In this document: positions 19,293-63,200 of the stretch, piece after piece
How the letters are laid out: every line of letters starts with the position of its first letter
How positions within the stretch are numbered: the stretch's first letter is position 1
From: Nitrosopumilus sp.
GTDB taxonomy: Archaea > Thermoproteota > Nitrososphaeria > Nitrososphaerales > Nitrosopumilaceae
Assembly (NCBI GenBank): GCA_965223425.1
Contig: OZ245003.1
Coordinates: forward strand, 672,001 to 736,000
Direction: 5' to 3'
DNA: 64,000 bases
The notes under the pieces: model-generated
Told to the model about the DNA's origin: nothing
The model's database searches: none
What the model saw: only the letters and a program-made list of their open reading frames with translations
Made by a program: the position numbers and the translations under genes

Positions 19293-19357
19293 TTTTGACG
19301 TGTTGCTTAATCAAATTTCACATCTGGGAAAGAATACTGTTTTTTTAAATTTAAATC

Positions 19358-19576
19358 ATGATCAAGTTCGATAAACCAATCCAGACCAAGTCTGGCATGG
19401 ATGTAAGCATGATATGGAATGAACTACAACAATGTTGGATATCTTATAAAAAAGCCAAATTTGATCGTGATTATCTTAATGCACATAATTATGCATTACA
19501 AATTCAAAAATTACAGGATGATATTGGCCTACAACAAGCTAAGTTTCCTGAGTTAGAAAAATCTATCATCAGATAA
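19358..19576 (+). CDS. Small hypothetical protein (72 aa)
   Basis: ATG-started ORF with host-like AT-rich codon use. Confidence 0.5.
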   Translation: MIKFDKPIQTKSGMDVSMIWNELQQCWISYKKAKFDRDYLNAHNYALQIQKLQDDIGLQQAKFPELEKSIIR

Positions 19577-19624
19577 TAATGAATAATATAAGATTAAGAA
19601 AAATTCTGATCTAATTACTCTTGT

Positions 19625-19823
19625 ATTTTTTCAAATGATTTTTTCAAATGATTTTTTCAAATGATTTTTTCAAATGATTTTTTCAAATGATTTTTTCAAA
19701 TGATTTTTTCAAATGATTTTTTCAAATGATTTTTTCAAATGATTTTTTCAAATGATTTTTTCAAATGATTTTTTCAAATGATTTTTTCAAATGATTTTTT
19801 CAAATGATTTTTTCAAATGATTT
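19625..19823. repeat. Non-coding perfect 13-bp tandem repeat ATTTTTTCAAATG x15
   Basis: Read directly; no spacers between units. Confidence 0.97.
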
Positions 19824-19855
19824 CTGCATTCCATTTTATCCAGCAGGAAATTTTT

Positions 19856-20948
19856 GTATGAGTTCACCTGCCCCTTATATCAGTCTGGCAACCTCTTGCG
19901 CCACGCTCTTGCCGTGATTCTGCCACGTCAGGACGCAGCTTACAAAATCTCCAAGGCGCTTCATGGACTTGCTGCCGCCCTTGGTCTGCCCGCTTATCTT
20001 CCGGAACACCACCATATAGCGCAGCGCCCTCTCTGATGCGTTGTTAGTCGGCTCCACACCGGCGTACTGGACAAACGTAAACAGGTGCGGAAGGTGCCGG
20101 TACATCATCATGACAAGCTTGTGCAGGTCTGCATCACCATCATCATCATCATCATCATCCGTGCCGCAGTACCGGTCAAGAACGTCTGCCAGGGTGTCCT
20201 CCATGACGTGCCGCTGCCTCCGCGAGTGCGCCCCCAGCCGTGCGACGTGTTTTGCCTCCTTGAACACAAACCGCAGGTCCTCGAGGTACTGCCGCCGTTT
20301 TTTCCGCCTGCCGTCATCTGGGAGCGGATCGTATTTTTCTGCCAGGGTTTTTGCCCTGCGTATGTCGTGCGACCAGCACAGCTGGTGTCTGTCCTCTGCA
20401 TTGAACCTGTCATACCCCCTGTATGCGTCAGTTACCGCTATGCCGTCATAGTCCATCGAATCAAGCATCAGGGTGGCCCTGCTTGGGCTGATCTGTATTG
20501 AGATGTTGTTTCCCGGACTGGGCCACGTTTGTCTGCTTTTTGGTGCCGCAGTCGCGATGCATGGTCTCGTCAAACCCGGCGCTTTCTGATTTGGCCACGT
20601 TCTTTGCTATCTCAGATGCCTGGCCTTCCAGCGCGTCTGCGGTGCGTGCCATGATGCTGTTTGCAGTGGAGGCAGACATGCTGACTCTGGCAACAGAGTG
20701 TATGATGCGCGGTATGACCTTGAGCGGGACGCGGGCAGCGCGCAGCTCAGAGACGAACCCTACCATCTTCTTGCCGTACGATCCGAGTCTTGGCAGGTCG
20801 CCGTTTGGCGCCTCTCCTCTGTATGGCCGCATGACGTGCAGACTGCAGTCTCTATGCGGTGGCGGGTCTCGTGTGCGGTGACCTCCATCTCGATAATGTC
20901 CCGTACGCGGGGGTCGCCCAAAACCATGGCCTTGCCGCATCTGCATCT
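19856..20948 (-). pseudogene. Second, unrelated IS66 transposase, frameshifted and 5'-truncated
   Basis: CRCG/CTSCG zinc finger, GFDETMH, VTDAYRGY, HQLCWSH, EPTNNASERALR spread over at least 3 frames; possible end GTATGAGTTCACC at 19856. Confidence 0.85.
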
Positions 20949-22041
20949 TCAGCTAAGCGAAATCTGCTCTAATTCAGGCCAAATCGGCTACAAAATGCAA
21001 ACAGATCAATGAGGGTACGACCTCATGATTTTTGTTGCTTAGACAAAAAACCAGACCGGGCCGCGAACTGTTAAACAATCCACGCATATATGAAGATGTT
21101 GCAGACGGCGCCAAAAACATGCTTGCATGCGCCAACACATCAGACAGGTACAACGCAACGTTTGGACCAGATGATCTGAACTGCGGCATGCTAAAGGCTG
21201 CCACCATGGATTCCTCTGTGGGCGGATGCGCAAAGGCGCAAAGGCGCAAGGGCTGCGATACCCCGTCTGACAGGTGGATTGCATCGGCAATCAGGGGAAT
21301 TGAGCAGGATGCAATCCAGCACACGCTTGAGGGCCAGATAGCAAGGCATCTTGAAACCCTCAAAAGACTGGGCAGGTTTCCAAAAAAAGGACTGGACATG
21401 GCAATCGATATGCACCTCATACCGCGCTATGACAGGGTACCGGGGGCTGAGCTGACACGTTCCAAATACAAGAACGGAACCAAATACTTTGAGCGTTACA
21501 TGACAGTCCAGTGCGTAAATGACAAGATGCGTATCGTTCTTGCCGCATCATACCTGAAGATGCTCGAATCCGTGCCTGATTACGTGGATGCCGTCCTCAA
21601 AACCATGGCAGGGATGGGCATCAGGATACACCTGGCGTTGCTTGACCGTGAGTTCTTCTCAGTTGATGCGATAAGCAAGCTGCAGGAAAACAACGTAAAG
21701 TTTCTGATGCCGTGCAGGAACACGTACAACGTGGTGGCCGCCTGCAAGAGTTTGCACAGGGGAAGAGAAGAAAAATCTCAGGGAACGTAATTGAAAACAA
21801 CCTGGGTTCTGCTGCTGAATATTCCATGATAATAACTGACAGGAAAAAGGCCAAAGACTCTGATGACCCAGAAGGAGGTACATCGGGTTTGCAACAAACC
21901 ATCCCGCAGTCAGGACCGAGGTCTATGCCAAAAGATGGGGGATAGAGATGAGTACGGCAAAATCGAGGAGTGCAGGGCCAAGACACGGATCACAGACATG
22001 GAATCGCGGATGCTGTGCTTTTACTATTCTCTGGTATTGTA
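20949..22041 (+). pseudogene. ISH3/IS4-family transposase with several frameshifts, 3'-truncated
   Basis: MAIDMHLIPRY, LLDREFFSVD, then YIGFATN and YAKRWGIE in shifted frames; left end CAGCTAAGCGAAAT. Confidence 0.82.
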
Positions 22042-22211
22042 GACTTTATGCATAATTGACCCGTCAAATTTTTTCTGCAGCATACATTACCAAGACACAC
22101 AAAGCCAGTCCAGGAAATTATTTAATTTTGACGCAAAAGGCCGTGTAAATTCGCAGAAATTAGAAATCCGTGCGCACTCTTGCAGTGCCTCATGCACCCT
22201 GTGCTGTGCCG

Positions 22212-23492
22212 TCAATAACCAAGTGACGGCCGCTTTTTCTTTGCATCCCACAGCAGTTGAAAGTTCGCAAGGCCGGTACACACAGCCAGCTCCTCGCGAA
22301 ACCCCTCTACCGTGCCGTCATACGGGTCTGTCATCCTCGCCCACTGCTTTATTCTTCCGATGGCGTGCCCCGCCTTTACCCTCTTGGCGCTGATCCTTTT
22401 GTTCGAGTCCTTTTGCTGCTGCGTCAGCTCCGTCCGCGGCCTCTTTTTTTCCGGCATCTCAAGTGCTATTCCCGTGTAGTGATTGGCAATTCCCTGGTAT
22501 CCCTTGTCTACAAGTACCCGTATCCTGTCCTTTTCCGGAGTGTCCTTTTTGTACATGGATTTAGACCACCTGCCAAAGTCTATCGGATCCTCTCTTATCA
22601 TGGTAAGGTCATGCGTCCCGCCCTCAAAGGACCTGCCTGCTGCAAGTATCAGGCCTGCCCTGTTTGTTGTTATGGTGGTGTTAATCGTAAAGCGCTTCTT
22701 TTTGCCAGAGTACGTGTTTTTTCTTTTATCCTTGTCCTGCGGACGCTGCCTTGGCACCTCGGTGCCGTCAATTATGATGGTTCTGTCCGGCATTAGCTGC
22801 TCTAGCTGCTCTGATGTCTCGGCCTTTTTTACCAGACGGGTCATCCTGTCTGCAGTAGGCAGGATCCCTGCCAGCACGGAATCTGCGAACCGGAGGTACC
22901 TGCACACGGTGGACTGGTCAACATCAAACAGCACTCCCAGTGCATCCTGCGTCACGTTTGAGCGCTTGCGGAACAGCGCAAGCAGCAGGACGGACCTGCG
23001 GTCAAGCAGGCAGCGGTTTCCGGGATCCGGTGTTTCGTCCTCTGAAAAGAGCGGCGCGTCTTTGTTGTGCCTCTTTGACTCTGCCACAAAGTCGTTGCAG
23101 ATGTAGTCAAACTGGTCAAGGTCATACGAGGTAATCCCTGCAAGCTTTGCGCTGTTGTGCAGTATGCCATGGATCACCTCCCTGATGTGCAGCAGCGACG
23201 TGTCCGTATCAGAGCGGCCTGCATCTGTAACGGCCCACAGGCTGTCCTCGCGCAGCAGCTGCTGCTCGCGCAGCAGGCCAATCGTCTTCTCGCGCTTGCT
23301 GATTGCTCTGTTGTTCTGCTTGATTGCTCTGTTGTTCTGCTTGATTGCTCTGTTGTTCTGCTTGATTGCTGTGTCCTTTTGCTTGATTGCTGTGTCCTTT
23401 TGCTTGATTGCTGTGTCCTTTTGCTTGATTGCTGTGTCCTTTTGCTTGAGCTCCCTTTGCAGCCTGCGTATAGTCTGTTCTGAAGATTCCAT
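22212..23492 (-). CDS. IS5-family transposase with N-terminal heptad-repeat expansion
   Basis: HTH (LGVLFDVDQSTVCRY), IIDGTEVPRQRP, YSGKKK, DKGYQG; expected RxxVEH reads RVKAGH. Confidence 0.88.
   Translation of the reverse strand: MESSEQTIRRLQRELKQKDTAIKQKDTAIKQKDTAIKQKDTAIKQNNRAIKQNNRAIKQNNRAISKREKTIGLLREQQLLREDSLWAVTDAGRSDTDTSLLHIREVIHGILHNSAKLAGITSYDLDQFDYICNDFVAESKRHNKDAPLFSEDETPDPGNRCLLDRRSVLLLALFRKRSNVTQDALGVLFDVDQSTVCRYLRFADSVLAGILPTADRMTRLVKKAETSEQLEQLMPDRTIIIDGTEVPRQRPQDKDKRKNTYSGKKKRFTINTTITTNRAGLILAAGRSFEGGTHDLTMIREDPIDFGRWSKSMYKKDTPEKDRIRVLVDKGYQGIANHYTGIALEMPEKKRPRTELTQQQKDSNKRISAKRVKAGHAIGRIKQWARMTDPYDGTVEGFREELAVCTGLANFQLLWDAKKKRPSLGY
23298..23448 (-). repeat. 21-bp coding tandem repeats (KQKDTAI x4, KQNNRAI x3)
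   Basis: TTGATTGCTGTGTCCTTTTGC and TTGATTGCTCTGTTGTTCTGC units. Confidence 0.93.
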
Positions 23493-36658: not shown

Positions 36659-37379
36659 TCTTCTGTACTGCTTTTTCATTTCTTTCCAAAATCATGGGCG
36701 ATTCTGCATCAATCCATTCCATATTTCCAATATCAAAAGCACTAACCCTCCCTTCTTTTGATATTTGTTGTAAAATATCATATGAAAGATTGATTGTTTT
36801 CTGTTTTTGTTTCTGTTTCTGTTTCTGTTTTTGTCTTGCTTTGATTCGCTTGATGATGTCCTTTCTGAGCATGTATATTCCCAAACATTCTGATAGTTGT
36901 AGCTTCATGACTGGCTTCTCTTTAAATTCAGTTATGATGCCATTTTTTACAACTGCAAATCCCGTTTCTTCTTTTCTTTTTGTCCTGGTTGCGATGCATG
37001 CAGAGCCCTTTTTCTTTCTGAAAAACTCCTTCATCTTTTTTAGATCGATTGCGCACAAGTTATCCACAAACCATAACAAAAATTCTGATTCATTTTTGAG
37101 CTTTCTCTCAATATGTAACAGATCTCCCCCTGTGCCGCTCTGTGAATCTTGAACCAGACTGATGTTTTTTTGACTTTCATAATAATTTCTGATCTGGCCT
37201 CCTAATCCGTTGAAATCTGAAACTATTACGATTTCTTTTACAAAACTAAATGATTGCAGATATTTTACAACATAATCAATTAACGGCTTGCCGTTAATTG
37301 GGGTCATTGCTTTTGGAAAATACTCTGTATATGGCTTGCCTCTGGTTCCTTTGCCGCCTGCTAAAATTACAGCCTTCAA
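36636..37379 (-). CDS. Sugar-phosphate nucleotidyltransferase with an internal (QK)5 repeat
   Basis: AVILAGGKGTR...PKAM motif. Confidence 0.88.
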   Translation of the reverse strand: MKAVILAGGKGTRGKPYTEYFPKAMTPINGKPLIDYVVKYLQSFSFVKEIVIVSDFNGLGGQIRNYYESQKNISLVQDSQSGTGGDLLHIERKLKNESEFLLWFVDNLCAIDLKKMKEFFRKKKGSACIATRTKRKEETGFAVVKNGIITEFKEKPVMKLQLSECLGIYMLRKDIIKRIKARQKQKQKQKQKQKTINLSYDILQQISKEGRVSAFDIGNMEWIDAESPMILERNEKAVQKIIKQMGF

Positions 37380-39985: not shown

Positions 39986-42900
39986 TTGCGACGACTGATA
40001 AAACCGCCATTGCTTGCAACAGCAGCAGCAGCAACAGCGCTTGTTCTTCTGATTCCACTTTGCATCCCCTTTGCGGAAGCCACGATAGATTCGCCTGTTC
40101 CAGTAGCCTCTATCACTGACGACCAGAGACATTCCACCGGCAAGATATTTGACGAGCTTCAATTTGCAAATGACATCACCACAGTAAAGATAGGCACCAG
40201 TACCTACGCCCTGGTCGCAGCAGATCGTGACGACGGCGTCCAGATAATCGACATTACCAATCCAGCAGACCCCTTCCCGACAGCCTCCTTTGGTGACGGG
40301 GACACCGTCACAGTCGACGGGGTAACTGGGACATTTCACGAGCTTGACGACGCACAGGACATCACCACAGTAACTATCGGCACCAGTATCTACGCCCTAG
40401 TCACAGCAAAATCTAACGGCGGCGTCCAGATAATAGACATTACAGATCCCGCAAACCCCTTCCCGACAGCCTCCTTTGGTGACGGGGATCGCGTCACAGT
40501 CGACGGGGTAACTGGGACATTTCACGAGCTTAGATCTGCACGAGGCATCACCACCGTAACTATCGACACCAGTACCTACGCCCTGGTCACAGCAACCACT
40601 GACCGTGGCGTCCAGATAGTCAACATTACAGATCCCGCAAACCCCTTCCCGACGGCCTCCTTTGATGAAGGGGACACCGTCACAGTCGACGGGGTAGTTA
40701 GGACATTTGACAATCTTCGCGAAGGATATGACATCACCACAGCAACTATCGGCGCCAGCACGTACGCCCTAGTCGCAGCATCCTATGTGCACGGCATCCA
40801 GATAATCGACATTACAGATCCCGCAAACCCCTTCCCGACAGCCTCCTTTAATGACGAGGAGCTCGTCACAGTCGACGGGGTAAATGGGACATTTGACAAG
40901 CTTAAAAGACCACGGGACATCACCACAGTAACTATCGACACCAGTATCTACGCTCTGGTCGCAGCATGGAGTGACAACGGCGTCCAGATAGTCAACATTA
41001 CAGATCCCGCAAACCCCTTCCCGACGGCCTCCTTTGGTGACGGGGACCGCGTCCCAGTAGGCAATGCAAACAGGACATATGACGAGCTTGACCGCCCACT
41101 TGGCATCACCACAGTAAAGATAGGCACCAGTATCTACGCCCTGGTCGCGTCAGAACGTGACGACGGCGTCCAGATAATCGACATTACAGATCCCGCAAAC
41201 CCCTTCCCGACCTCCTCCTTTGGTGACGGGGACCGCGTCCCAATCGCCGGTGCAACCAGGATATTTAACGAGCTTAACGGCGCACAGGACATCACCACAG
41301 TAACTATCGACAACAGCACGTACGCCCTGGTCGTGTCTCGCGATGACAGCGGCGTCCAGATAGTCGACATCTCGGCAAGTTCTGTTGCAGGCCAGACCAC
41401 GCCAGTAATCAAACTTTTCGGTGTGAACCCGCACCTGATGGAGCTTGGCGGCGCCAACTATACAGAGTCCGGGGCCACGTGTAATGATGCAGACGGCACC
41501 GACCTAACAAGCAATGTCACCATAAACAGCGGCAGTGTCAGCAGGTTTGCCGTGGGGGAGTACGACGTCACCTACGACTGTGCAGCAGATGACAGCGGCA
41601 GCGACAGCAGCAGGGCCGACACTGTGATCCGCAAAGTCGCAGTCCGCGACACCATAAAGCCCGCATTTGTAGTAGATGAGCACGACGCAGATTACACCAC
41701 CACCATAAACATGAGTGGCACGTACGTTGCAGGCACGATCCTAAACGTGACTGACCGCGACGAGACCACCGAGAGCATAGGGAGCGCCGACGCAGTAGAT
41801 ACAAACATTCCGGGAACCTACTACGTCACCTACACCGTCACTGATGCCTCTGGCAACTCGCGCACAATAACTGAGACCGTAATAATATTTGACACGAGGC
41901 CCCCCGTAATCGAGCTAAACGGCGACAACCCGCACTTTGTGGAGTGGGGCTCCGGATACGACGAGCCGGGCGCCGTATGCACTGACGGCGCAGGCGATGA
42001 CACGCTCTCGCCGGAAAATCTCGTGATAAACTTTACCGCGCCAGTTGACGCATCCGCCGTGGGCGACTACCAGGTCAACTACTACTGCACGGACCCAGAC
42101 AGCAACATTCACGCAGACCCCCCCGTGGTCCGCGTGGTTACAGTCCGCGATACGGTGTCGCCCGTAATTGTCGATGCCGCCCTGCTCGGGGCAGGCACCA
42201 TAGTCCTGACCTACAGCGAGCCAGTCGACGTGAAATCTGATGCGACTGACGGCTCCGGGTTCGGGCTGTCTGACGGAACAGTACATTTCAACTCGGATCC
42301 CGCAGGCGCCGCCAACAAGATAACGCTTGGCATCTCCGGGCGTAACGGCTCCACTGCCGATCCGCCTGACATCACGTATGATTCTGAATCCGGAGGAAGC
42401 GTGGAGGACACCAACGGGAACGCCGCGCACACGGGGACCTTTGATGGAACCATAGATATGGCGCCCCCCATACCAAAGTCTGCCCACACGTCCAACTCCA
42501 CTGCCATTCACATCGGGCTTTCAGAGGCAGTAGCTGACGCCGGTGTCGCTCCCGGCGACTTTGCGCTGTCTGTGGCCCCCGCGGCAGTAACGCCTGTTAA
42601 TGCCACTGTGCATGCAGGTGATGGTGATAATCTCCACGCTGCCCCGCATGTCACCTCCGTGTCAGTTGACGGCTCCCGCATCACGCTCCTCCTAAACGGC
42701 GCGCTGCACGGAAACCAGGACGTAAAGGTCTCATACCAAAAGGGCGGCTCCATCGGTACGGGCACCGGTTCAGGCGGCACCATAAACGACCTCTCAGGGG
42801 GCACCACGCTTGCCGGCTCTGTTCCGATCGGCCAGCAGGCAGACTTTCCAGTCGCCATGACCCTCTCCAAGGACGGCACAACAATCTTTGTGCTTGACTT

Positions 42901-45900
42901 TTTTAACAACCTGCACGCATACGGTTTGCCTGCCCCGTGGGACACATCCGGCGCATCCCACGCATACACCACCCCGCTGGCATCCCTGATACCTCCCATT
43001 CCAGTCAACAGCACCGTCACGGTGAACCCCGAAACTTACATGGCGGGCCTAACCTTCTCTGATGACGGCACCAGGCTGTTTGCCACAGACGCGCTGGACG
43101 GCTCTGTCATCCACGAGTTTGCGTTCTCCTCCCCGTGGAACGCCTCTGCTGAATCCTTTTCCTCGTACACTGCCCACTCTTTACCCCTGTCCGGCATCGG
43201 GCCCAACACGGATCTGCGCGGCATTGCCTTCTCGCCGGACGGTACCACCATGTACATCGCAAGTGACCGCAACGACCAGATACACGAGTTCTCCCTTACT
43301 GATGCGTGGAACGCCTCCTCTGCCTTCCTGACGCACAGCGTCTCTGCGCAGGGCCCCCGGGCAGACGCTGCAGATGTCACTGCAGGCATCGCCTTCTCTG
43401 CTGACGGCTCCCGCATGTTCGTGGCAGTGCCTGATAAAAACCTCATAAACGAGTTTGCGCTTTCAGAGGCCTGGAACATCTCAAGTGCCGCACACGCGGG
43501 ATCATTCAGCCCAGGGCCGTCCGTATTCAGCGTCCTCCCCCCCGGTTCCCTGTCCTTTGTTGACGTGGAACTGCCGTTTGAGCCCTCAGATGTGGCCTTC
43601 TCCGCTGACGGCACCAGCATGTTCGTGCTAGATGAGAGCGCAGGCGATGACTTTCCTGATTCGGTATCCGGCCTGACGCCCGCAGTAAAAGGGTACGCTC
43701 TGGCGCCCCCTGCCAAACCCTTTGATCCCGGGGCCCTCCCAAACCAGCTCGGGTCATTTGGGCTGCGTGAGGTCCAAAACACCCTGCCTGTGGCAAGGGC
43801 AGGCCCTGACGTCTTTGCATATACGAACACGGCAGTGTCCCTTGACGGCACCGGCTCGTATGACGCAAACGGCGACACCCTGGCATACCTGTGGGAGCAG
43901 ACTGGAGGCCCGGGGAACGTGGCACTGGATGATCACACCCTGCAAAAACCGGCGTTCATAGCACCTGCAGTGGCAGACTCGGGGCCCCCCATCGTCCTGG
44001 AGTTCACGCTGACGGTAAGTGACGAAACAGGCAACGCAGACCGTGACACGGTGGCAGTAACGGTGCTTGCAGGCGTGGGTACGCCTGCTATAGTGTCTGC
44101 CAGCGTGGTCAGTGCGACGCAGTTTGAAATAGTGTATAACAAGGCAGTACACGGAAACAGCACCGATTACACCAACCTTGTAATTGACGGCAGGGGGCAG
44201 ACAGTCGGTGTGGTGGCCGGCACCGGGACTGCAACTCACACCGTCTCATATTCCCCCTCTGATACAACGGCAACAACAACAGCAACAACAACGACTGATG
44301 CGACAGGCACCGTGGATATCGGCGATGGAATCACCGATGCCCACGTGCCTGACATCTCGCTGGTTCCAGTTGTCGGCCAAACGCTGTCTGACGGCGTTGC
44401 CCCTACGCTGGTCTCTGCCAGGACGGGTCCTGCCTCAAACCAGATAGACGTCACCTTCTCCGAGGCTGTCCGCAGCGGCGCCTCTGATGACTTTGTCGGC
44501 TGGAGTGTATCGCTGGGAGACAACAATGACAACTACAACACAGTCATTACAGTCACCGGCCTTGACGGTACCGGCAGCACTGCAACCCTGACGCTGCAAA
44601 AACCGGTCATGCCCAGTGACGCAACGCCTGACGTAACGTACGATGCCGCTGCGGGGAGCGTCTCAGATGCGGCAGGCAACGCGTTAGCTACTGCAACTGT
44701 CACCGCTACTGCGGGACATCCTGCAGGTCTTCACATCCACCTGATCGGCGATGCCTTCCTATACCACCCGTACGGGGAACCGTACACCGACAAGGGCGTC
44801 CTGTGCCATGACGCAGACGGAAACGACATAACTGACACCGGCGACTATGAAACCCTGCCGTACCTGCGGCAGCTAAACCAGACCGTAGATGGTGAGAGGC
44901 TAGGCGTAGATGTCAACCTTCATGAAAATACCGTTCTTAATTTTACCCACCAATCCCAAAACGAGTACCGCCCATTTGATCCGCAGGAGGTAATATACAG
45001 GTGTGTCACCCCGCTTGGATCCGTAGAGGAGGGCAGGACCGTAGCCCTGCGTGATGAAACCCCTCCTGAAATCCGACTAAACGGGTCCCGCAACGTGGAT
45101 CTGGAGATAGGCGAGATATTTAATGAGACTGCCACATGTACTGACGCTCCTCTCAAATCCCAGATGGAACGTCTAACCGGTGCCTTTTATCTGACTTTTA
45201 CCATCTCTTCCCTCCCTGACGGGTACCAAAACACCGCAGGAGAGCACACGATAAGCTACACATGTTCGGACTCTAAAGGCAACGACGCAGAAACCAGCAG
45301 AACGCTTCATGTAGGCACGCCTGACAACACGCCACCCGTGCTTGCAGTAAACCCCGGCATAGTGACCACCCTGGCAAACGGCACGCATGTCGTACGGCAG
45401 GATGTCGGCTTTGCAGCAGCAGATGACGGCGGCCTGCAGTCCGCAGTATCCTGCACGGACAACAGGGATGATACCCCTGCAATTACCCTTGATCCTGCCA
45501 CGGTGGACACCTCGTCTGCTGGCACCCACGCCGTAACGTACTCCTGCACGGATGCTGCCGGCAAACAAGCTGATACCGTCACAGTCACCTGGGATTTCGG
45601 TCCTGCAGCCCCCGTGCTTGCAGTAACGCCCGCAGACACCGCAGTCACGCTTGCAATCAACGCATCATACGGCATCCCCGCAGCATCCTGCACAGACCAC
45701 AAAGACGGCGACATCACCAACACCGGGATTCTAACTGCCATCTCGTCTGGAGGCCAGCCAGTCGACGAAATAGACACCTCCTCTGCAGGCACATACGATA
45801 TAACGTACTCCTGCTCAGACTCTACCGGCAACACAGTAGAGCACAACGTGACAGTCACAATCCGGGCTGCCACAACTGACAACACGCCGCCTACCATAGT

Positions 45901-48900
45901 GCTAAAGTCGCCGCCCCTGACACTGTTTGTTCCGGCCGGAGCCGCCTTTGCAGATGCCGATCCCGGCGCCTTCTGCATTGATGGCCAGGACGGACGCACA
46001 GACGAGGGAATCGACGTGGATGCCACCGCACTTGACACGGCCGTTCTTGGCAACCACACCGTGACGTACTCCTGCACGGATTCTGGCGGCCTCCGGTCTG
46101 ACACCATATCAAGGCCAGTCAGCGTGTACGGATTCACCGTAAACGGGAACATCGCCGACTTTGCAACTGACATCACCACCTCTGATGTCTACGAGCCATA
46201 CGCAATCCTAGACATTACGAATATCAAGAATGCGTCACCCAGCAAAAAGTATTACGATACAGACGGGCAAGACACCGCCCGCTTTAACGGAACAACGCTC
46301 CAGGCGGGAACCTGGAGCGTGACGTATGCCGTCTCTGGCCGCGACGACGTGTCAAATCCGATCAACTTTGAAATCGAGGAAACCATAACCGTGGCTACTG
46401 CGACTGCACCGCCGGATGACAACGTCACCCCGACTGCGATAATCAGAGCGCCTGACACCGCAGACGAGGGAGCAACAGTAACCCTTGACGGGACCGGCTC
46501 GACAGACACTGACGGCACCATATCATCATACGCATGGACCACCAACGACACGTCCATCACAATAACAAACCCCTCTCAGGCAACGGCATCATTTACGGCC
46601 CCCTCGGTCGAAAAAGACACTTCTCTGGTCATCACGCTGAAGGTAACTGACAACGACGACGGCACAGATTCTGCACAACACACCATGACCATAACCAACG
46701 TAAGCCGGCCACCGGGTGACACCACATCACCACCGGCCAACAACCCTCCTGTCATCTCGCATACGGTGGACACCGACCAAATCTCTACTACCAGAATCAC
46801 GCTGGATCGCAATACCGGATTTGAGCTTGATGAGCTGGGCGTAACATGCTCTGACCCGGACGGTGACACCGTCCAACTCACGCATGAGGCAAGTCCGGCG
46901 TATGATAAAGACACAGAAGGCAGGTACTCCATCTTCTACACTTGCACCGATTCACGCGACCTTTCTACACACTTCCAGGTTGTCCTGCACCTTTCTGCAC
47001 CTGACAACACGCCACCCACAATCTCACTTGTCGGCGACTCTGAGCATACAGTCGACAAGGGCGCTTCTTACGATGATCCCGGAGCCGAGTGCGCCGACTT
47101 GCGGGATGACTCCCCCGAACTGGTGACATCCGGCTCAGTTGACACCTCCGAACCGGACACCTACGAGATAGAGTACACGTGCAAGGACGCCGCAGGCAAC
47201 GAGTCAGATACTGTTACCCGGACAGTCACCGTATTGCCTGACACCACGCCTCCAACCTTTACGGTAAACGGTAACGCAACCGACTTTGCTACATCCCTGG
47301 CAGAAGGCCAGACCTACAGGAACGGCAAGATAGAAAACATCACCGAGACTGGTAGCCCTCCGACCAGCACGGAGATAAGGTATTACAGCGGCGCCGGCGA
47401 TGCTGCTGTCACCACTGACGAAAACAAGATCAACTCCATTAACAATACCATGCCTGCCATCGGAAGCTACACCATACAGTATACAGTCTCTGACTCGGCC
47501 GTTTCACCAAACACACACACAATCACAGAGACACTCACCGTGCGCGCACCTGCCACGGTAACCATAGGCGCAATCGTCTCGACTACCGGCTCCATCTCGT
47601 CACTTGGCATACCTGCAAATGACACCATACACCTGGCAGTAAATGACTTTAACAGGGAATACCTTGCGTCAAACGAGGCCGCATGGAGGCTTGCAGTGTC
47701 TGAGCATGATGATAGGTCTACTTCTGAGGGCGCAATTGCAGCACTGGAACTGCTTGCAGGCAGCAACATAACCTCCATTGTGGGGCCCCTCACAAGTGAT
47801 GCGCTGTCTGCAGTAAAGGGCCACGCCCTGTTTGACAATCCGTCAAGGCTTGCCATAAGCTACGCATCCACTGCGCCCACGGTGGATCTCAAACAGAAAG
47901 ACGACCGCGTCTTTAGGACCGTCCCTGATGATTCCAATATCGTCAGTGTATACGTCAGCCTCTTTGAGGCAGACTCTGTGGATTACGTGATTCCGGTGTT
48001 CCGCAACGACACGTGGGGGATAGCACTGAACCGGACCCTTGCAGATGAAATTGATGATCATAACAACAATAATAACAACAACAACGAAATAACCGTACAC
48101 GGCGGAATACTGTACGACCCTGACACTGTGTCACTTTCTGCCAACACAACGCTTGCCTTGCTAAATGACACGCTAAGTCAGGATTCCGTCAGTGAAAAGA
48201 CCCCCGCAGTGGTGGTGTTCGGATTTAACGAGACCCTTGACATACTCGACGAGGCTGCAGCCACTGCAAACCTGCCTGCAGCAAAGTGGTACGGCAGCGA
48301 CGCCGTGGCGCCATCAAAGCTGCTTGAGGGTGATGCCCCACGGGACGAGAATCGCAAGGCATTCCTTGAGCGCACCGACTATAACGTGCTCACCCTTGCA
48401 ATAGACCAAAACGAGGCAAACAAAAGGATAGACCGCTCCGTGGACAACGCTGACGTATACTCTTATGCGGCATACGATGCAGTATACATACTCGGCACTG
48501 CCATACACCTCAACGGCGGCTCTGCAGGTAATACAGTCAACGAGGGCCTGATTGGCAACATCACGCAAGTGGCAGACAACACAAACGGGCACTACACAGA
48601 CCCTGCCATGGGCAACACCGAGCTCAACGAGTACGGCGACCTGCTGCAGGCTGACTACTTTGTCCTCTCCCTTGATGCAGGCAGCGGGACCTCCTTTGAG
48701 CCAGAATTCAGGTATTATCACTCATCAGGCACCCTTGAGAGCCTTGTCTCCTCTGGTGGCGGTGGTGGCAGCAGCGGAGACGTCTCTGCCCCCTCAATCC
48801 GCACGGGCTTTGATGCGGGCCAGTACCCACTGGTATATGACGGGGTAAAGTACGGCCCTGACACGATTGACTCTCCCCACACTGCCACGATACGCGCAGG

Positions 48901-49699
48901 CAGCGGCGAGAGGCTTCTCAGCACCCTCACAGTATACGAGAACGGCGGGGCGCAAAACGTGCGGCACGTCGACATGTTTGTCGCACACAACGGCAGGACA
49001 ATACACAACGACGGCACGGAAACCCACGTGACCTACGATTCGGGCAACGTCCGGATAACTGATCCGCACGGCCTGATTGCCAGTGCCACCGTGGATGCGT
49101 CTGCCATTGATGCCACAAAGGCGCAGTTTGAGTTTGCCATAACCTTTGCCAAGAAGGTTCCGCTCTCTGACGTGCTGTACCGCCTGTGGGACACCAGCAG
49201 AAACGCGCTTTACATCCACCTTGAGGACGCCCTTGTGGTGTCTGAGGGAAGGAAAGGCGGCAGCAGCAGCGGAGGCGGCAGCAGCAGCGGTAGCAGCAGC
49301 AGCAGCGGAGGCGGAGGCGGCGGCGGCAGTAGCAGCAGCAGTACTGCCACCCCAGCCACTGGCAGCGGCAACGGCACAACCACAACCACAACCGCCACCG
49401 CTGGCAACGGCACCGCAGCTGACACTGCAGACAAGCAGCAACCACAACAACAACAACCCCGACAGGGCTTTACCGCAGAACAGCTTGACACCCTAAAGCA
49501 GTGGGGCGGATTTGCGTCCCAGTCCGCATCTGACTCGCAGCTTTTAGCCCAGTTCGGAATAGAGGGCACCAGCATCCCCCCATACTTTAAGCAGACAGCA
49601 AAGTGGTTCCTCGATGCAGATGACGGCGGTGACGGCCTGACTGCGCAGGAGTTTGTCGCAGCGCTGTCGTACCTCGGGCAGCGCGGGCTGCTAAACTAG
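39986..49699 (+). CDS. Giant modular cell-surface protein 1 (3237 aa): signal peptide, 7 LVIVD-like propeller repeats, DUF5011/Ig-like domains, second propeller, PKD domains, branched-chain amino acid SBP-like domain, low-complexity linker, thaumarchaeal-type C-terminal motif
   Basis: SD-like AGGAG at 39971 then TTG; hydrophobic signal; YALV...DGVQIIDITDPANP repeats; PPVIELNG/DAAGN motifs; FSxDGT repeats; IVGPLTS...ISYASTA...FRTVPDD; IPPYFKQTAKWF...FVAALSYL. Confidence 0.9.
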   Translation: MRRLIKPPLLATAAAATALVLLIPLCIPFAEATIDSPVPVASITDDQRHSTGKIFDELQFANDITTVKIGTSTYALVAADRDDGVQIIDITNPADPFPTASFGDGDTVTVDGVTGTFHELDDAQDITTVTIGTSIYALVTAKSNGGVQIIDITDPANPFPTASFGDGDRVTVDGVTGTFHELRSARGITTVTIDTSTYALVTATTDRGVQIVNITDPANPFPTASFDEGDTVTVDGVVRTFDNLREGYDITTATIGASTYALVAASYVHGIQIIDITDPANPFPTASFNDEELVTVDGVNGTFDKLKRPRDITTVTIDTSIYALVAAWSDNGVQIVNITDPANPFPTASFGDGDRVPVGNANRTYDELDRPLGITTVKIGTSIYALVASERDDGVQIIDITDPANPFPTSSFGDGDRVPIAGATRIFNELNGAQDITTVTIDNSTYALVVSRDDSGVQIVDISASSVAGQTTPVIKLFGVNPHLMELGGANYTESGATCNDADGTDLTSNVTINSGSVSRFAVGEYDVTYDCAADDSGSDSSRADTVIRKVAVRDTIKPAFVVDEHDADYTTTINMSGTYVAGTILNVTDRDETTESIGSADAVDTNIPGTYYVTYTVTDASGNSRTITETVIIFDTRPPVIELNGDNPHFVEWGSGYDEPGAVCTDGAGDDTLSPENLVINFTAPVDASAVGDYQVNYYCTDPDSNIHADPPVVRVVTVRDTVSPVIVDAALLGAGTIVLTYSEPVDVKSDATDGSGFGLSDGTVHFNSDPAGAANKITLGISGRNGSTADPPDITYDSESGGSVEDTNGNAAHTGTFDGTIDMAPPIPKSAHTSNSTAIHIGLSEAVADAGVAPGDFALSVAPAAVTPVNATVHAGDGDNLHAAPHVTSVSVDGSRITLLLNGALHGNQDVKVSYQKGGSIGTGTGSGGTINDLSGGTTLAGSVPIGQQADFPVAMTLSKDGTTIFVLDFFNNLHAYGLPAPWDTSGASHAYTTPLASLIPPIPVNSTVTVNPETYMAGLTFSDDGTRLFATDALDGSVIHEFAFSSPWNASAESFSSYTAHSLPLSGIGPNTDLRGIAFSPDGTTMYIASDRNDQIHEFSLTDAWNASSAFLTHSVSAQGPRADAADVTAGIAFSADGSRMFVAVPDKNLINEFALSEAWNISSAAHAGSFSPGPSVFSVLPPGSLSFVDVELPFEPSDVAFSADGTSMFVLDESAGDDFPDSVSGLTPAVKGYALAPPAKPFDPGALPNQLGSFGLREVQNTLPVARAGPDVFAYTNTAVSLDGTGSYDANGDTLAYLWEQTGGPGNVALDDHTLQKPAFIAPAVADSGPPIVLEFTLTVSDETGNADRDTVAVTVLAGVGTPAIVSASVVSATQFEIVYNKAVHGNSTDYTNLVIDGRGQTVGVVAGTGTATHTVSYSPSDTTATTTATTTTDATGTVDIGDGITDAHVPDISLVPVVGQTLSDGVAPTLVSARTGPASNQIDVTFSEAVRSGASDDFVGWSVSLGDNNDNYNTVITVTGLDGTGSTATLTLQKPVMPSDATPDVTYDAAAGSVSDAAGNALATATVTATAGHPAGLHIHLIGDAFLYHPYGEPYTDKGVLCHDADGNDITDTGDYETLPYLRQLNQTVDGERLGVDVNLHENTVLNFTHQSQNEYRPFDPQEVIYRCVTPLGSVEEGRTVALRDETPPEIRLNGSRNVDLEIGEIFNETATCTDAPLKSQMERLTGAFYLTFTISSLPDGYQNTAGEHTISYTCSDSKGNDAETSRTLHVGTPDNTPPVLAVNPGIVTTLANGTHVVRQDVGFAAADDGGLQSAVSCTDNRDDTPAITLDPATVDTSSAGTHAVTYSCTDAAGKQADTVTVTWDFGPAAPVLAVTPADTAVTLAINASYGIPAASCTDHKDGDITNTGILTAISSGGQPVDEIDTSSAGTYDITYSCSDSTGNTVEHNVTVTIRAATTDNTPPTIVLKSPPLTLFVPAGAAFADADPGAFCIDGQDGRTDEGIDVDATALDTAVLGNHTVTYSCTDSGGLRSDTISRPVSVYGFTVNGNIADFATDITTSDVYEPYAILDITNIKNASPSKKYYDTDGQDTARFNGTTLQAGTWSVTYAVSGRDDVSNPINFEIEETITVATATAPPDDNVTPTAIIRAPDTADEGATVTLDGTGSTDTDGTISSYAWTTNDTSITITNPSQATASFTAPSVEKDTSLVITLKVTDNDDGTDSAQHTMTITNVSRPPGDTTSPPANNPPVISHTVDTDQISTTRITLDRNTGFELDELGVTCSDPDGDTVQLTHEASPAYDKDTEGRYSIFYTCTDSRDLSTHFQVVLHLSAPDNTPPTISLVGDSEHTVDKGASYDDPGAECADLRDDSPELVTSGSVDTSEPDTYEIEYTCKDAAGNESDTVTRTVTVLPDTTPPTFTVNGNATDFATSLAEGQTYRNGKIENITETGSPPTSTEIRYYSGAGDAAVTTDENKINSINNTMPAIGSYTIQYTVSDSAVSPNTHTITETLTVRAPATVTIGAIVSTTGSISSLGIPANDTIHLAVNDFNREYLASNEAAWRLAVSEHDDRSTSEGAIAALELLAGSNITSIVGPLTSDALSAVKGHALFDNPSRLAISYASTAPTVDLKQKDDRVFRTVPDDSNIVSVYVSLFEADSVDYVIPVFRNDTWGIALNRTLADEIDDHNNNNNNNNEITVHGGILYDPDTVSLSANTTLALLNDTLSQDSVSEKTPAVVVFGFNETLDILDEAAATANLPAAKWYGSDAVAPSKLLEGDAPRDENRKAFLERTDYNVLTLAIDQNEANKRIDRSVDNADVYSYAAYDAVYILGTAIHLNGGSAGNTVNEGLIGNITQVADNTNGHYTDPAMGNTELNEYGDLLQADYFVLSLDAGSGTSFEPEFRYYHSSGTLESLVSSGGGGGSSGDVSAPSIRTGFDAGQYPLVYDGVKYGPDTIDSPHTATIRAGSGERLLSTLTVYENGGAQNVRHVDMFVAHNGRTIHNDGTETHVTYDSGNVRITDPHGLIASATVDASAIDATKAQFEFAITFAKKVPLSDVLYRLWDTSRNALYIHLEDALVVSEGRKGGSSSGGGSSSGSSSSSGGGGGGGSSSSSTATPATGSGNGTTTTTTATAGNGTAADTADKQQPQQQQPRQGFTAEQLDTLKQWGGFASQSASDSQLLAQFGIEGTSIPPYFKQTAKWFLDADDGGDGLTAQEFVAALSYLGQRGLLN
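40090..41375 (+). repeat. Seven 180-bp (60-aa) tandem repeats, LVIVD-like beta-propeller blades
   Basis: Recurrent ACATTACAGATCCCGCAAACCCCTTCCCGAC framework at 180-nt period. Confidence 0.92.
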
Positions 49700-57286: not shown

Positions 57287-60200
57287 TTGCAACGACTGAT
57301 AAAACCGCCGTTTCTTGCAGCAGCAACAACAACAGCAATAGCAATGGCGGCACTTGTTCTTCTGATTCCCCTCTGCATCCCCCCTGCAGATGCCGCAACG
57401 GATGCAACGTCTGTTCCGACAGACTGGAGCCTGATACCCTCGGGCCTTGGCGACGGGGACCAGTTCAGGCTGCTTATCACGACGTCAACCAAACGCAACG
57501 CCGCATCTTCTGACATTGCCGTATATGACACGTACATCCAAAACCTCGTAGCATCAGGCCATGCAGACATACAAGAGCACAGCTCGTCATTCAGGGTGGT
57601 GGGCAGTACCAATGCAGTCGATGCGCGCGACCACACCGGCACCACCTATACCGACGATGACAAGGGCCCCCCAATCTACTGGCTAAAGGGCGCAAAGGTG
57701 GCAGATAACTATCAGGACTTTTACGACGGATCATGGGATGAGGAGAGATCCGGGCGAAACGAGCACGGAAACGAATTACTGTTTGGCTCTTCTGATACAG
57801 TGAATGTGTTTACCGGCTCTAATGATGATGGGACAAAACACGGCAACTCCCTTGGCTCCAGCAGTGTGCACGTTGGAGTCCCAAACAATGATGGTGGAGC
57901 TAGACTTAACCCACTCGGCAACGTTGCCATATCTCTGTCATCAAGTGAGACGCATCCGTTTTACGGCATCTCGCCTGTATTTCAGGTGGGAAGCATAAAT
58001 GCCGTCCCGACTGCGAAAATCAGCGCGCCTGACACCGCAGACGAGGGCACAACTGTAACCCTTGACGGGACTAGCTCTAGTGATGATGACGGCACAATAT
58101 CGTCATACGCGTGGAGCGCCAGCGACGCGTCCGTCGCAATAACAAACTCCTCTCAAAAGACTGCATCATTTACTGCGCCCCAGGTCACAGAGGACACTCC
58201 CCTGGTCATCACGCTGAAGGTGACTGACAACGACGGCGACACTGGCTCTGCACAACACACCGTCACCATTACCAATACCGTGACTGATCCCCCCAGGTTC
58301 GTCTCAGCAGAGCTAGACGAGTCAACGGGTATGCTGAAAATCACATTTGACAAGACGATAGACGCATCCGGCGTCGATGCCACAAAGTTCCACATAAGAG
58401 AGTCCGGATCCGTCACGGGAGGCGTGACCCTGTCTGCACCGGAGCTTGACACTGCCGCTACTACTACTGACGGCACCGCGCTCTCATTTACGCTGACTGG
58501 CCCGAACCGCGACGCAGTCATCGCGCTGGATGACCCGCAACTGGAGATAGGGGAGGGCGCCGTGGCCGACGTCAATGGCACCAGGATAACTGCGGCCTTT
58601 GACATATCGACTGCCAGGTTCGCCGAGTCTTTTGCCTTTCCGCTGACTACAGATAATGCGGCCAATAGCATCTCCTTCTCAAACGACGGCCTGAGGATGT
58701 TCCTGGCAGACGCCAGGCCTGTTAACGTACGCCAGTACGCCCTGCCTGCGGCCTTTGACGTGTCAGGCGCCAGCCTTACCCGCTCTGTTATGCTTTCATT
58801 CAGCAATATTGGCCTATCCGGCCTTACCTTCTCAAACGACGGCCTAAAGATGTTTACGGTAGATATTCTAACTGATCAAGTACGCCAGTACGCCCTGCCT
58901 GCGGCATTTGACGTGTCAGGCGCCAGCCTTACCCGCTCTGATACGCTTGTTAGCGCCATGGGTGACCTTGCCTTCTCAAATGACGGCCTAAGTGTGTTTG
59001 TTCTCCAGGCATTCTCTAGTACTGTAACACGTTACGACCTGTCTGCACCATTTAACATGACAGGCGCCAGCAAAGTCGGCTCCCACACCTTCGGTTTATT
59101 GGGCGTGAGTTCGTATGGCCTTACCTTCTCAAATGACGGCCACAGGATGTTCATAACAAGCCAACGTGATAGTGGTGCCTCTCACCATACCGACACCATG
59201 TACCAGTACGACCTGCCTACAGCATTTGACACGACAGGCGCCAGCCTTGTCGGCACCCTTGGCGTCTCCCCGCAGCCGACGGGCTCAAGAAACACCGCCT
59301 TCTCAAATGACGGCCTTGAGATGTTCCTGCTAGATCGAACCAACAGTACCGTACACCGGTACGACCTGAGGCTGCTCTACGACATAGACAGGGTTCTGCC
59401 ACCGGACATCAACGTTGTTCCAGTCGCCTCCTTTGATGACGGGGACACCGTCAAAGTCGGCAATACAAACAAGACATTTGACGAGCTTAGCCGCCCATAT
59501 GGCATCACCACGGTAAAGATAGGCTCCAGTACCTACTCCCTGGTCGCATCATTTGATGATGACGGCGTCCAGATAATCAACATTACCAATCCCGCAAAAC
59601 CCGTCCCGACCTCCTCCTTTGATGACGGGGACACCGTCACAGCAGTCGACGGGACACCCAGGACATTTGACGAGCTTGACAGCGTACGGGACATCACCAC
59701 GGTAAAGATAGGCTCCAGTACCTACGCTTTGGTCGCATCATCCAGTGACGACGGCGTCCAGCTAGTCAACATTACCAATCCCGCAAAACCCGTCCCGACC
59801 TCCTCCTTTGATGACGGGGACACCGTCAAAGTAGGCAGTACAAACAAGACATTTGACAAGCTTGACGGCGCATATGGCATCACCACGGTAAAGATAGGCA
59901 CCAGTACCTACGCTTTGGTCGCATCATTTGATGATGACGGCGTCCAGATAGTCAACATTACGGATCCCGCAAACCCCGTCCCGACCTCCTCCTTTGGTAA
60001 AGGGGACACCGTCAAAGTAGGCAGTACAAACAAGACATTTGACGAGCTTGACGGCGCATTGGGCATTACCGTAGTGGATATGGGCACCAGTACCTACGCC
60101 TTGGTCACAGCATACAATGACAACGGCGTCCAGATAGTCAACATTACGGATCCCGCAAAACCCGTCCCGGCAGTCTCCTTTGATAAAGGGGACACCGTCG

Positions 60201-63200
60201 AAGTAGGCAGTACAGACAAGACATTTGACGAGCTTGGAGGCGCATGGGGCATTACCGTAGTGGATATGGGCACCAGTACCTACGCCTTGGTCGCAGCAAA
60301 CACTGATGACGGCGTCCAGCTAGTCAACATTACCAATCCCGCAAAACCCGTCCCGACCTCCTCCTTTGGTAAAGGGGACACCGTCGAAGTAGACAATACA
60401 GAGAAGACATTTGACGGGCTTGACGGCGTACGGGGCATCACCACAGCAACTATAGGCTCCAATACCTACGCCTTGGTCGCATCATACGCTGATGACGGCG
60501 TCCAGATAATCGACATTACAGATCCCGCAAACCCTTTTCCGTCAATCTCCATTAATAACGGGGACACCGTCAAAGTAGGCAATACAAACAAGACATTTGA
60601 CAAGCTTGGAGGCGCACAGGACATTACCGTAGTGGATATAGGCTCCAATACCTACGCCCTGGTTGCAGCATACGATGACAACGGCGTCCAGATAATGGAA
60701 ATCTCGGCAAGATCTGCTGCAAGCCTGCCCACTGTGGCCCCGACCCTCGTGTCTGTTGAAAGGCACGACCCTGCCACACAAAGCACAAACGATCGCAACC
60801 CGACCTTCAGGGTAACCTTCAGCAAGGCAGTAAACAACGTGGATGCACCAGACTTTGAGACCTTAGGTGATGCCACAGCGACAGTCTCTGCTGTCACCCC
60901 GGTATCTGATACGGTATACCACGTGGAGGTAAACGTGACTGCAGACGGCATAGTCAACCTTGGCATTGATGCAGTACACAACATCCAAGATGCCGCAGGC
61001 AACTCCCTGTCCGGTACTGGGCCTACCGAGACAGACGAGCCATACACCATAGATACAGTTCCCCCAACCCTTGCATCAGTTACAAGGCACAGCCCTGCAG
61101 AGGAGGACACAAGCAACAACATCCTGGTCTTCAGGGCAAACTTCAGCGAGGCAGTCGCCAACGTGGATGAACCAGACTTTGTGATCCTGGGCAACGCCAA
61201 TATGAGCAACTTTGCAGTCACCCCCGTGCCTTCCAGCTCCAACTCCACATACGAAGTACGCGTATTTGTATTAATAGACGGCACGGTCGAACTTGGCATC
61301 AATGCTACGGCAAACGACATCACAGACGCCGCAGGCAACGCCCTGTCCGGCACGGGACCGACGGGGGCCAACGAAACATACACAGTAGATAAAGTTCTGC
61401 CAGCCCTTACATCCGTTGAAAGGCACGACCCTCTCACAGAAAACACAAACGATGACACCCCCACCTTCAGGGTAACCTTCAGCGAGGCAGTGGTTAACGT
61501 GGACCAATCAGATTTTCTGGACACAGGCAGCGCCACAGCGGCAGTCTCCGCTGTCGTCCCGGTGCCCGGCGGTAAAATATACGACGTGGGGGTAACCGTA
61601 ACTGCAAACGGCACAGTCGGCCTTTCCATCTCACTGACAACAGACATTGAGGACGCCGCAGGCAACTTAATGCGCCTTGGGCTGCCTAGCGGGGACAACG
61701 AATTATACAGCGTCTCCCTCCTCCCGCAGGCAGAAAACCGGCCTCCGACAATCACCCTAACCGGCGACAACCCTGCAACTGCAGAAAGGTACGTCACATA
61801 CACAGATGCCGGGGCAGCCTGCGCCGATCCTGACGGCGATGATATAACGCTTACCAACTCCTCTAATGTGGACACGGACACAGTATCTTTGCCGGCATCT
61901 CCTTACCGGTACACCTACTCGTGTACAGACCAACACGGGCTTGCCGCGACAAACAAGACCAGACTCGTCAGTGTGGAGGATACCGTGACACCTGTGATTA
62001 CCCTTGTCGGCCCGGCATCAGTATCGCTGACAGTGGGCGACACATACACGGAAGAAGGGGCAACCTGCACTGACTCTGGCCGTCTGCTTGGTGCTGCCAG
62101 TATCGGCGGCGCTACGGTGGACACGGCTGTCGTCAACGAGTACGATGTGGTGTATGCCTGCTCAGACGGGTACAACAACGCTATTCCGGTAACCAGGACC
62201 GTAACTGTTACAGAACCGACGACAACGCCACCAACGCCAACGCCACCAACGCCAACGCCTCCAACCCCGACTGACGACAGTGGCGCCCCCACCTTCACTG
62301 CAAGAACCGGCCCTGCCACAAACCAGGTGACTGTCACCTTCTCTGAGAACGTCAACAGCACGGCTGACTCCCATACAGCATGGGGCGTGGCAGGAAGCAC
62401 GGTCACCGCAGTCACCGGCCTTGACGGGACTGACGACACCGCAGTAATAACGCTGCAAAGCCCAATCCGGCCGCCTGATGCAACGCCTGCCGTGACATAC
62501 GATGACGATGCGGGGGACATCTCAGATGCTGCAGGCAACAGGATGCTTACCGCCACTGTCACCGCTACTGCGGGACACCCGGCGGACCTTCACATACACC
62601 TGATCGGCGATGCCTTCCTATACCACCCGTACGGGGAACCGTACACCGACGAGGGCGCCCTGTGCCATGACGCAGACGGAAATGACATAACTGACACCGG
62701 CGACTATGAAACCCTGCCGTACCTGAATCGGACGCAGACCATAAACGTCAACCTTCACGCAGATACTGCTCTTAATTTTACCCACCCCACCCAAAACCTT
62801 TACCGCCCCTTTGATCCGCAGGAGGTAACATACAACTGCACCACCCCGCTTGTATCCGTAGAGGACTCCAGGCTGGTAGCCCTGCGCGATGAAACCCCCC
62901 CTGAAATCCACCTAAACGGGCCACGCAACGTGGATCTGGAGTTGGGGGAATCATTTGGGGATCCTGATCCTGCCACGTGCACTGACACTCCTCTTAAATC
63001 CCAGATGGAACGTGTAGGCGGCCTCTTTTATCTGACTGTTCTCAGCTCTTCCCTCCCTGACGGGTACCAAAACACCGCAGGAGAGTACACGATAACCTAC
63101 ACATGTTCGGACTCTAAAGGCAACGACGCAGAGGATACAAGCAGAACGCTTCATGTAGGCACGCCTGACAACACGCCACCCGTGCTTGCAGTCAACCCCG

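Follow-up and report, generated by a model that had tools for sequence, protein, structure and literature searches.

An N-terminal LVIVD-type propeller with two variable loops per blade in a giant, putatively secreted Nitrosopumilus protein

We analyzed a stretch of 64,000 nucleotides from a Nitrosopumilus genome (GenBank assembly GCA_965223425.1, contig OZ245003.1, positions 672,001 to 736,000), hereafter called the window, which carries two giant paralogous genes with arrays of closely similar repeats. Gene A (window positions 39986–49699, forward strand), a single open reading frame (ORF), codes for a giant multidomain protein of 3,237 amino acids. Its GC content is 0.53–0.61, versus ∼0.37 in the flanks. 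Gene B (57287 to the window end at 64000, forward strand) is a giant paralogue that is cut by the window end and encodes 3,219 amino acids in the genome. The translation of gene A begins with a signal-peptide-like segment (39986–40081, forward strand) in which basic residues are followed by a hydrophobic stretch and then by AEA. This segment recurs nearly verbatim in 11 of the 12 giant ORFs of the genome that carry the repeats, the one that differs being O12. The order of domains in gene A is a signal-like N-terminus, an LVIVD propeller, Ig-like and PKD domains, a PD40-like propeller, an ANF_receptor domain, a Gly/Ser linker, and a conserved C-terminal module. Downstream from the repeats, Pfam assigns eight stretches to Bact_surface_Ig-like and two to K319L-like PKD. 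Judged from its sequence, the protein is probably secreted and displayed at the surface.

The repeats of gene A had been described in the original prediction as a seven-blade propeller with a near-identical DNA framework and two hypervariable loops per blade. This description stands except for the period, which is 186 bp (62 codons) and not 180 bp. Tandem Repeats Finder reports a period of 186 bp for both arrays, with 6.4 copies at 40147–41333 (80% matches) in the first and 6.8 copies at 59427–60694 (84% matches) in the second. Read in frame, each gene has seven blades of 62 codons, except that one blade of gene B has 63. The propeller of gene A, P03, occupies 40085–41386 on the forward strand, with blades that start at 40085, 40271, 40457, 40643, 40829, 41015, and 41201, and its ring is predicted to be closed by an N-terminal strand. 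Propeller P04 (59414–60718, forward strand) lies inside gene B, at amino acids ∼710–1145, and its seven blades have the same two variable loops.

Each loop comprises four codons per blade. Loop A lies between the second and third strands, at 40223–40234, 40409–40420, 40595–40606, 40781–40792, 40967–40978, 41153–41164, and 41339–41350 on the forward strand, and the second of its codons has the form NNT. Loop B forms the entry to the first strand, at 40160–40171, 40346–40357, 40532–40543, 40718–40729, 40904–40915, 41090–41101, and 41276–41287 on the same strand. From the first blade of gene A to the last, the loop A peptides are DRDD, KSNG, TTDR, SYVH, WSDN, ERDD, and RDDS, whereas those of loop B are QFAN, DDAQ, RSAR, REGY, KRPR, DRPL, and NGAQ. 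These peptides reproduce the earlier list exactly, and the NNT form of the second loop A codon recurs in all 14 blades of both genes, with the same eight codons as had been noted. The seven loops of each kind in the gene A propeller are all different. Scaffold codons are often one identical triplet across all 14 blades (CTT, ACC, TAC, GGC, and CAG are examples), and blade identity inside one propeller is 70%–92%.

The extent of the family was determined by searching the whole genome (2.64 Mb in two contigs, 99.99% complete), translated in all six frames, with a profile of the 14 blades. The genome has 112 blades, and these form 16 propellers of seven blades each in 12 ORFs of 1,484–7,841 amino acids. 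Together these ORFs span 133 kb, or 5% of the genome. Blades come in sevens or multiples of seven in 16 of 16 propellers, all of which are located in intact ORFs. Among 98 non-redundant blades, amino acid entropy is highest at columns 44 and 45, each with 15 residue types, at column 47, at columns 23, 24, and 26, and at columns 8 and 14–16. Columns 44–47 correspond to loop A and columns 23–26 to loop B, while columns 8 and 14–16 are found directly after the fourth strand and within an extra hairpin. There are 82 distinct peptides for loop A and likewise 82 for loop B among the 98 blades. Arg, Tyr, Trp, Phe, Asn, and His are abundant at the variable sites.

Relatives are also found in other genomes. 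Matches occur in five of 24 other genomes of the genus, with identities of at most 53%, and no match to the propeller family was obtained in 16 genomes of the order that belong to other families. In a database search, 713 relatives at E ≤ 0.001 were recovered among 8,000 candidates scored, the best being 53% identical. The relatives in species-representative genomes number 294 and belong mostly to Nitrosopumilus, Nitrosopumilaceae, and Cenarchaeum metagenome-assembled genomes (MAGs). Others come from Flavobacteriaceae, Arenicellales, Gammaproteobacteria, Synechococcus, Chloroflexota, and Aenigmatarchaeota. A single 2.06-Mb Nitrosopumilus MAG holds 32 of 66 loci, often with 14, 21, or 28 consecutive blades. 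The blade units of relatives in other genomes measure 50–59 amino acids.

The fold of the gene A array was modeled with AlphaFold2 over positions 40070–41398, using an alignment of 14 of the propellers of the genome as input. The best model (predicted local distance difference test, pLDDT, 90.7; predicted template modeling score, pTM, 0.90) is built of seven units, each with four strands and one additional short hairpin, and its last blade is completed by the N-terminal strand. The array is thus predicted to be a seven-bladed β-propeller whose four-stranded antiparallel blades are closed in a ring. Foldseek retrieves generic seven-blade propellers exclusively, such as the LGI1 EPTP domain, phosphotriesterase, WD40 proteins, and BamB, with template modeling scores of 0.44–0.64 among non-fragmentary matches and 0.55–0.64 for the top ones. 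A search of PDB sequences with a profile of the 14 propellers gave no match at E ≤ 0.01. The connections of a four-stranded antiparallel propeller blade lie on one face and the other in turn. For this reason the loop between strands 2 and 3 should exit on the same face as the whole segment that joins strand 4 to the first strand of the following blade. Loops A and B would then share one face of the propeller, with the invariant G-(S/T)-S turn and the ITDPANP loop on the opposite one. The idea that both loops map to one propeller face, which had been proposed as a structural check, is in agreement with the strand topology of the predicted model.

To measure selection in this genome, 44 disjoint nearest-neighbor pairs of extant blades with at least 80% DNA identity were compared, each blade being used once. 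Over all pairs, the proportion of synonymous differences (pS) is 0.094 and the proportion of nonsynonymous differences (pN) is 0.079. After Bonferroni correction, pN exceeds the synonymous rate at five of 59 columns (Poisson p from 3e-4 to 8e-10), and all five are located inside the two loops. The excess relative to the synonymous rate is 2.8-fold at column 23, 2.4-fold at column 26, 3.5-fold at column 44, 3.4-fold at column 45, and 2.35-fold at column 47. A second Nitrosopumilus genome, with 576 matches reduced to 154 non-redundant blades, gave 52 pairs. Columns 26, 27, 35, 44, and 45 are significant there, with ratios of 2.0–3.1. The columns chosen in the second genome were then tested in the first, so that choice and test use separate data. 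At these columns, the local pN/pS ratio in this genome is 2.27 (Fisher p 1e-4), and the ratio to the pooled synonymous rate is 2.51 (p 8e-16). For the 10 pairs that include blades from the window, the local ratio is 4.5 (p 0.0014).

Codon composition adds to this picture. T is the third base of column 45 in 84 of 98 blades and of column 8 in 89 of 98, whereas T makes up just 21% of third positions in the giant genes. At column 45 the first and second codon bases are close to evenly mixed. This combination implies that many replacement changes have taken place while the silent position kept its ancestral base. When gene A is compared with its closest paralogue in windows of 100 amino acids, pN/pS is 1.05–1.82 over amino acids 101–400. 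The other 28 windows with a defined ratio have values of 0–0.87, except for one of 1.24 at amino acid 1882. The original prediction of diversifying selection on the loops of a constant scaffold therefore stands insofar as pN exceeds pS at loop sites and does so again in the second genome, with a site-wise test that is pair-based.

Public sequencing data were consulted as well. Five runs from three studies contain the sequence, none of them recorded as RNA. Over the repeats, four of these runs are represented by Logan contigs of ∼75–280 bp, many of which fit two places (169 of 377 in one run), and the 19 letters that differ in the run contigs may stem from paralogues.

The NNT codons raise another possibility, which was part of the original prediction as "targeted variation": that a diversity-generating retroelement (DGR) or other templated mutator rewrites the loop codons, with NNT or NNC derived from AAT or AAC in a template. 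The presence of NNT in all 14 blades, together with variable codons of the NNY type, does resemble a DGR target, and multi-base codon changes occur in otherwise identical blades. However, RVT_1 reverse transcriptases gave no match in this 99.99%-complete genome or in five other family-rich genomes, although control genomes did give matches. A search with blastn for a template repeat outside the giant genes found none; all 215 high-scoring segment pairs (HSPs) of the propeller DNA are inside the 12 giant ORFs, and therefore no non-coding template copy is present. Moreover, the adenines that flank variable codons are invariant (the third-base A of an ATA codon is kept in 98 of 98 blades, for example), while all four bases occur at the first and second positions of the variable codons. 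DGR-type targeted mutagenesis is rejected on these grounds, and we regard the chance that any such mutator shapes the loops as almost negligible. The comparison with antibodies and variable lymphocyte receptors that had been drawn at the outset is apt for a variable face on a constant scaffold. It does not extend to somatic assembly, of which nothing gives an indication; the variants appear to form a germline family of paralogues instead.

The blades have not evolved independently of each other. For the 98 blades, the nearest neighbor in framework sequence is in the same propeller in 52 cases and otherwise in another propeller, where it has the same position in 29 cases and a different one in 17. 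This distribution implies concerted evolution within arrays, duplication of whole propellers, and exchange between loci. Framework identity between blades reaches 100%. Within P01, an alignment of two blades over 177 bases shows a difference at a single loop codon only (CGG to TTT). Another pair of blades differs by six substitutions, which are all nonsynonymous and all in columns 23–26, 44, and 45, and a third pair differs solely by GGG to GAT, AAA to GGC, and GTT to TTT. Codons that match these multi-base changes exist in sister blades, so conversion from such donors can explain them. Short conversion tracts, which would be invisible in identical flanks, seem more economical than three successive mutations. 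From one comparison window to the next, synonymous divergence of gene A from its paralogue varies between 0 and 0.45, an indication that gene A has a mosaic history. A strict four-gamete test of loop A against loop B peptides shows no complete violation by eye. Shuffling of loops is thus the more parsimonious explanation rather than a proven one. The propeller pairs P01/P05 and P02/P09 have 97%–100% DNA identity blade by blade, as expected of recent duplications.

Considering these data together, we think it likely that the array is a distal, N-terminal LVIVD-type propeller of a giant secreted adhesin-like protein, in which the scaffold is uniform and the loops are under diversifying selection, and which may contribute to a putative binding repertoire. 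Repeated duplication of blades and gene conversion within and between loci would keep the blade scaffold nearly uniform, down to the choice of codons. Meanwhile, about five codons per blade would turn over faster than silent sites and come to differ in almost every blade. Since the loop codons differ in this way, each propeller should display a face of its own, asymmetric and made up of 14 different loops. The supply of loop diversity could be ordinary point mutation, probably assisted by the transfer of loop variants from blade to blade in short conversion tracts, and positive (diversifying) selection would retain it.

Several observations weigh against this interpretation. The tests use Nei–Gojobori p-distances and pair-based counts, with the pairs selected for similarity from a recombining family. 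For the exact eight loop columns of the original prediction, the 10 window pairs give a local pN/pS of 1.37 (p 0.15), compared with 2.92 relative to the pooled synonymous rate. The local ratio is low because local pS is high (0.228), which is compatible with an older ancestry of the loop codons. Framework pN/pS in the window pairs is ∼1.0, and thus the propeller domain as a whole appears to evolve fast. On the structural side, four of the five AlphaFold2 models have pLDDT values of just 54–65, and the loops were assigned to a face from the strand order of the model and general topology, not from coordinates. Finally, the whole gene A protein scores 19.2 bits against Pfam LVIVD (PF08309), just below the cut-off of 20.2.

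A rival explanation is that there is no positive selection at all. In that case, the loops would be unconstrained, and the contrast between a converted scaffold and older loop codons would create an artifactual excess of pN over pS. Local pS at the top five columns is indeed 0.144, versus 0.090 elsewhere, the local ratio at the eight loop columns is not significant, and recombination among blades is evident. Against this stand the columns chosen from independent data, whose local ratio in this genome is well above 1, and the columns that reach significance in the second genome too. Conversion tracts would also need to skip single codons repeatedly, and third bases stay T next to first and second bases that are nearly evenly mixed. 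We therefore judge an artifact of this kind to be quite improbable and continue to favor diversifying selection on the loops.

In earlier work, the LVIVD repeat was described from cell-surface proteins of archaea and bacteria, with a unit of 42 amino acids (Adindla et al. 2004, PMC2447325). Three genomes of sponge-associated Thaumarchaeota are also on record as carrying it (Haber et al. 2021, PMC7848895). Among the best 120 of the 713 relatives, ∼74 have a precomputed PF08309 label. The array shares with the LVIVD family the core motif ..YALVA..xxDxGVQIIDI(T/S)(D/N)P.. and the occurrence of tandem units in large secreted surface proteins, a location that is predicted for the proteins studied here. 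It differs in that its unit has 62 rather than 42 amino acids, with a 20-amino-acid β-hairpin inserted in the connection to the next blade. The portions of PMC2447325 and PMC7848895 that were available mention neither variable loops nor selection for LVIVD repeats, and neither do the titles and abstract openings of the literature that names LVIVD. A variable face of this kind is known from fungal recognition genes, and within these parts of the literature it is not reported for an LVIVD-type family.

By its mode of evolution, the closest described system appears to be the NWD/HNWD (het-d, het-e) WD40 family of Podospora anserina. The repeats of its ten genes show concerted evolution, both inside a locus and among loci, with four residues per repeat under positive selection on the interaction surface, and its diversity is attributed to a supply of mutations together with reshuffling of repeats (Paoletti, Saupe and Clave 2007, PMC1805685). 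Both systems thus have propeller repeats in multiple genes that evolve in concert, with few diversifying codons per repeat. In Podospora, the WD40 repeats belong to intracellular STAND/NACHT proteins of a fungus, their number is variable, and repeat-induced point mutation (RIP) is the proposed mutator (PMC1805685). In contrast, the blades examined here are of the LVIVD type, occur in giant and presumably extracellular archaeal proteins in multiples of seven, and have no NTPase domain beside them. In Pfam searches, the array has no WD40 match above the cut-off and no NTPase domain.

Two other systems invite comparison. Highly repetitive propellers (Pereira and Lupas 2022, PMC9218822) likewise have near-identical blades that arose by recent amplification and are common in prokaryotic surface and signaling proteins. 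The terms "LVIVD," "hypervariable," and "positive selection" each have zero occurrences in the main text of that paper. Unlike those propellers, the blades here are 70%–92% identical and have a defined variable face. In DGR targets, too, the scaffold is constant and a small number of variable codons, of the NNY type, lie on a binding surface, which in the propellers studied here is putative. However, the variation here is between germline paralogues and not between template and target, and it is without adenine specificity.

The propeller loops may bind ligands. Their most likely role would be that of a germline-encoded binding repertoire on the cell surface, directed at host matrix, other cells, particles, or viruses. 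A more specific version, which we put forward tentatively as a possibility, is that the 16 propellers of this genome, like the at least 154 non-redundant blades of its sister genome, constitute a germline recognition repertoire in which conversion moves loop variants and diversifying selection separates them. If this were true, these archaea would have, outside the cell, a counterpart to the NLR repeat repertoires of fungi, with which hosts, partners, or viruses are discriminated.

A different function for the same pattern is escape rather than binding. The propeller tip, which would be the most exposed part of the cell surface, might be recognized by viruses, host cells, or grazers; the loops would then change so as to evade them, and the paralogues would be antigenic or receptor variants. 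An excess of pN over pS on one presumably exposed face fits escape equally well, and the patchy presence of the family in the genus, with expansion in some lineages, is as expected of genes involved in conflict. However, the variable sites are enriched in Arg, Tyr, Trp, Phe, and His, which are typical of binding hot spots. The 16 propellers also lie side by side in intact ORFs, with no sign of switching or of silent cassettes, given that all HSPs fall inside ORFs. We consider escape by itself unlikely, and it should be kept in mind that escape and binding are not mutually exclusive. Between the two, binding by a germline-encoded repertoire is the role we prefer.

Little has been published on the recognition of hosts, viruses, or particles by ammonia-oxidizing archaea, and most of their giant surface proteins lack annotation. 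The present analysis points to ∼35 residues per propeller that selection appears to keep changing, so that what these cells bind or hide from becomes testable. It also suggests that the route of combining a constant repeat with a variable face, as in fungi, arose independently in archaea, with a different propeller family and outside the cell.

The remaining parts of gene A have features of their own. A PD40-like β-propeller region (42833–43765, forward strand) is unrelated to the blade array and matches PF07676 (PD40) with an E-value of 5.1e-09 and 36.3 bits. Its "FS.DG..MF" repeats are present in both giant genes; those of gene B are at amino acids ∼440–700. The C-terminal module of 80 amino acids (49457–49696, forward strand) is common to nine of the 12 giant proteins, among which it is nearly identical, and the other three share a different C-terminus. 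It contains an acidic, D/G-rich loop followed by ..TAQEF.., and this may resemble a calcium-binding or dockerin-type loop. The C-terminal 149 amino acids of gene A, including this module, match no Pfam family at E ≤ 1. The module possibly has an anchoring or docking role.

The base composition of the giant genes is distinctive. The 12 giant ORFs have a GC content of 0.53–0.57 and a GC content at third codon positions (GC3) of 0.60–0.66, compared with medians of 0.40 and 0.34 for ORFs of at least 200 amino acids on the main contig. GC-biased gene conversion among blades was considered as a source of the high GC content. The propeller part of gene A has 0.53–0.57, versus 0.54–0.61 in the rest of the gene, and since it is not richer in GC, conversion of blades does not explain the composition. 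Either a foreign origin or a special codon usage could account for the high GC3. The second contig (123 kb) has a GC content of 0.469, versus 0.412 for the main contig, and may be mis-binned.

Two giant genes elsewhere on the main contig, of 3,912 and 3,925 amino acids (contig positions 535756–547491 and 973918–985692), have propellers that are 97%–100% identical in DNA. One propeller is present as a copy in a 6,309-amino-acid gene as well. Such near-identical propellers at distant loci look like very recent duplications or conversions.

The giant genes of the window are located among housekeeping genes. On one side there are ORFs whose translations, by eye, resemble RpoD, L18e, L13, and S9, and on the other side Pfam identifies SBDS and exosome genes. 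A GC-rich patch at 17909–23492 (0.50–0.57) includes an IS66-family transposase of 455 amino acids, a 231-amino-acid IS66 fragment on the opposite strand, and a DDE_Tnp_4 transposase. The stretch that separates the IS66 pieces contains, at 19625–19823, a perfect 13-bp tandem repeat of 15.3 copies (100% identity); the length of its unit is not divisible by three. At 7623–7822, inside an SRP54-type GTPase gene (6688–8043) and downstream from the GTPase domain, a 12-bp unit is repeated perfectly in tandem, with 16.7 copies (100% identity). At 36798–36834, a short hexamer repeat encodes an alternating K/Q run in a nucleotidyl-transferase-like gene on the minus strand.

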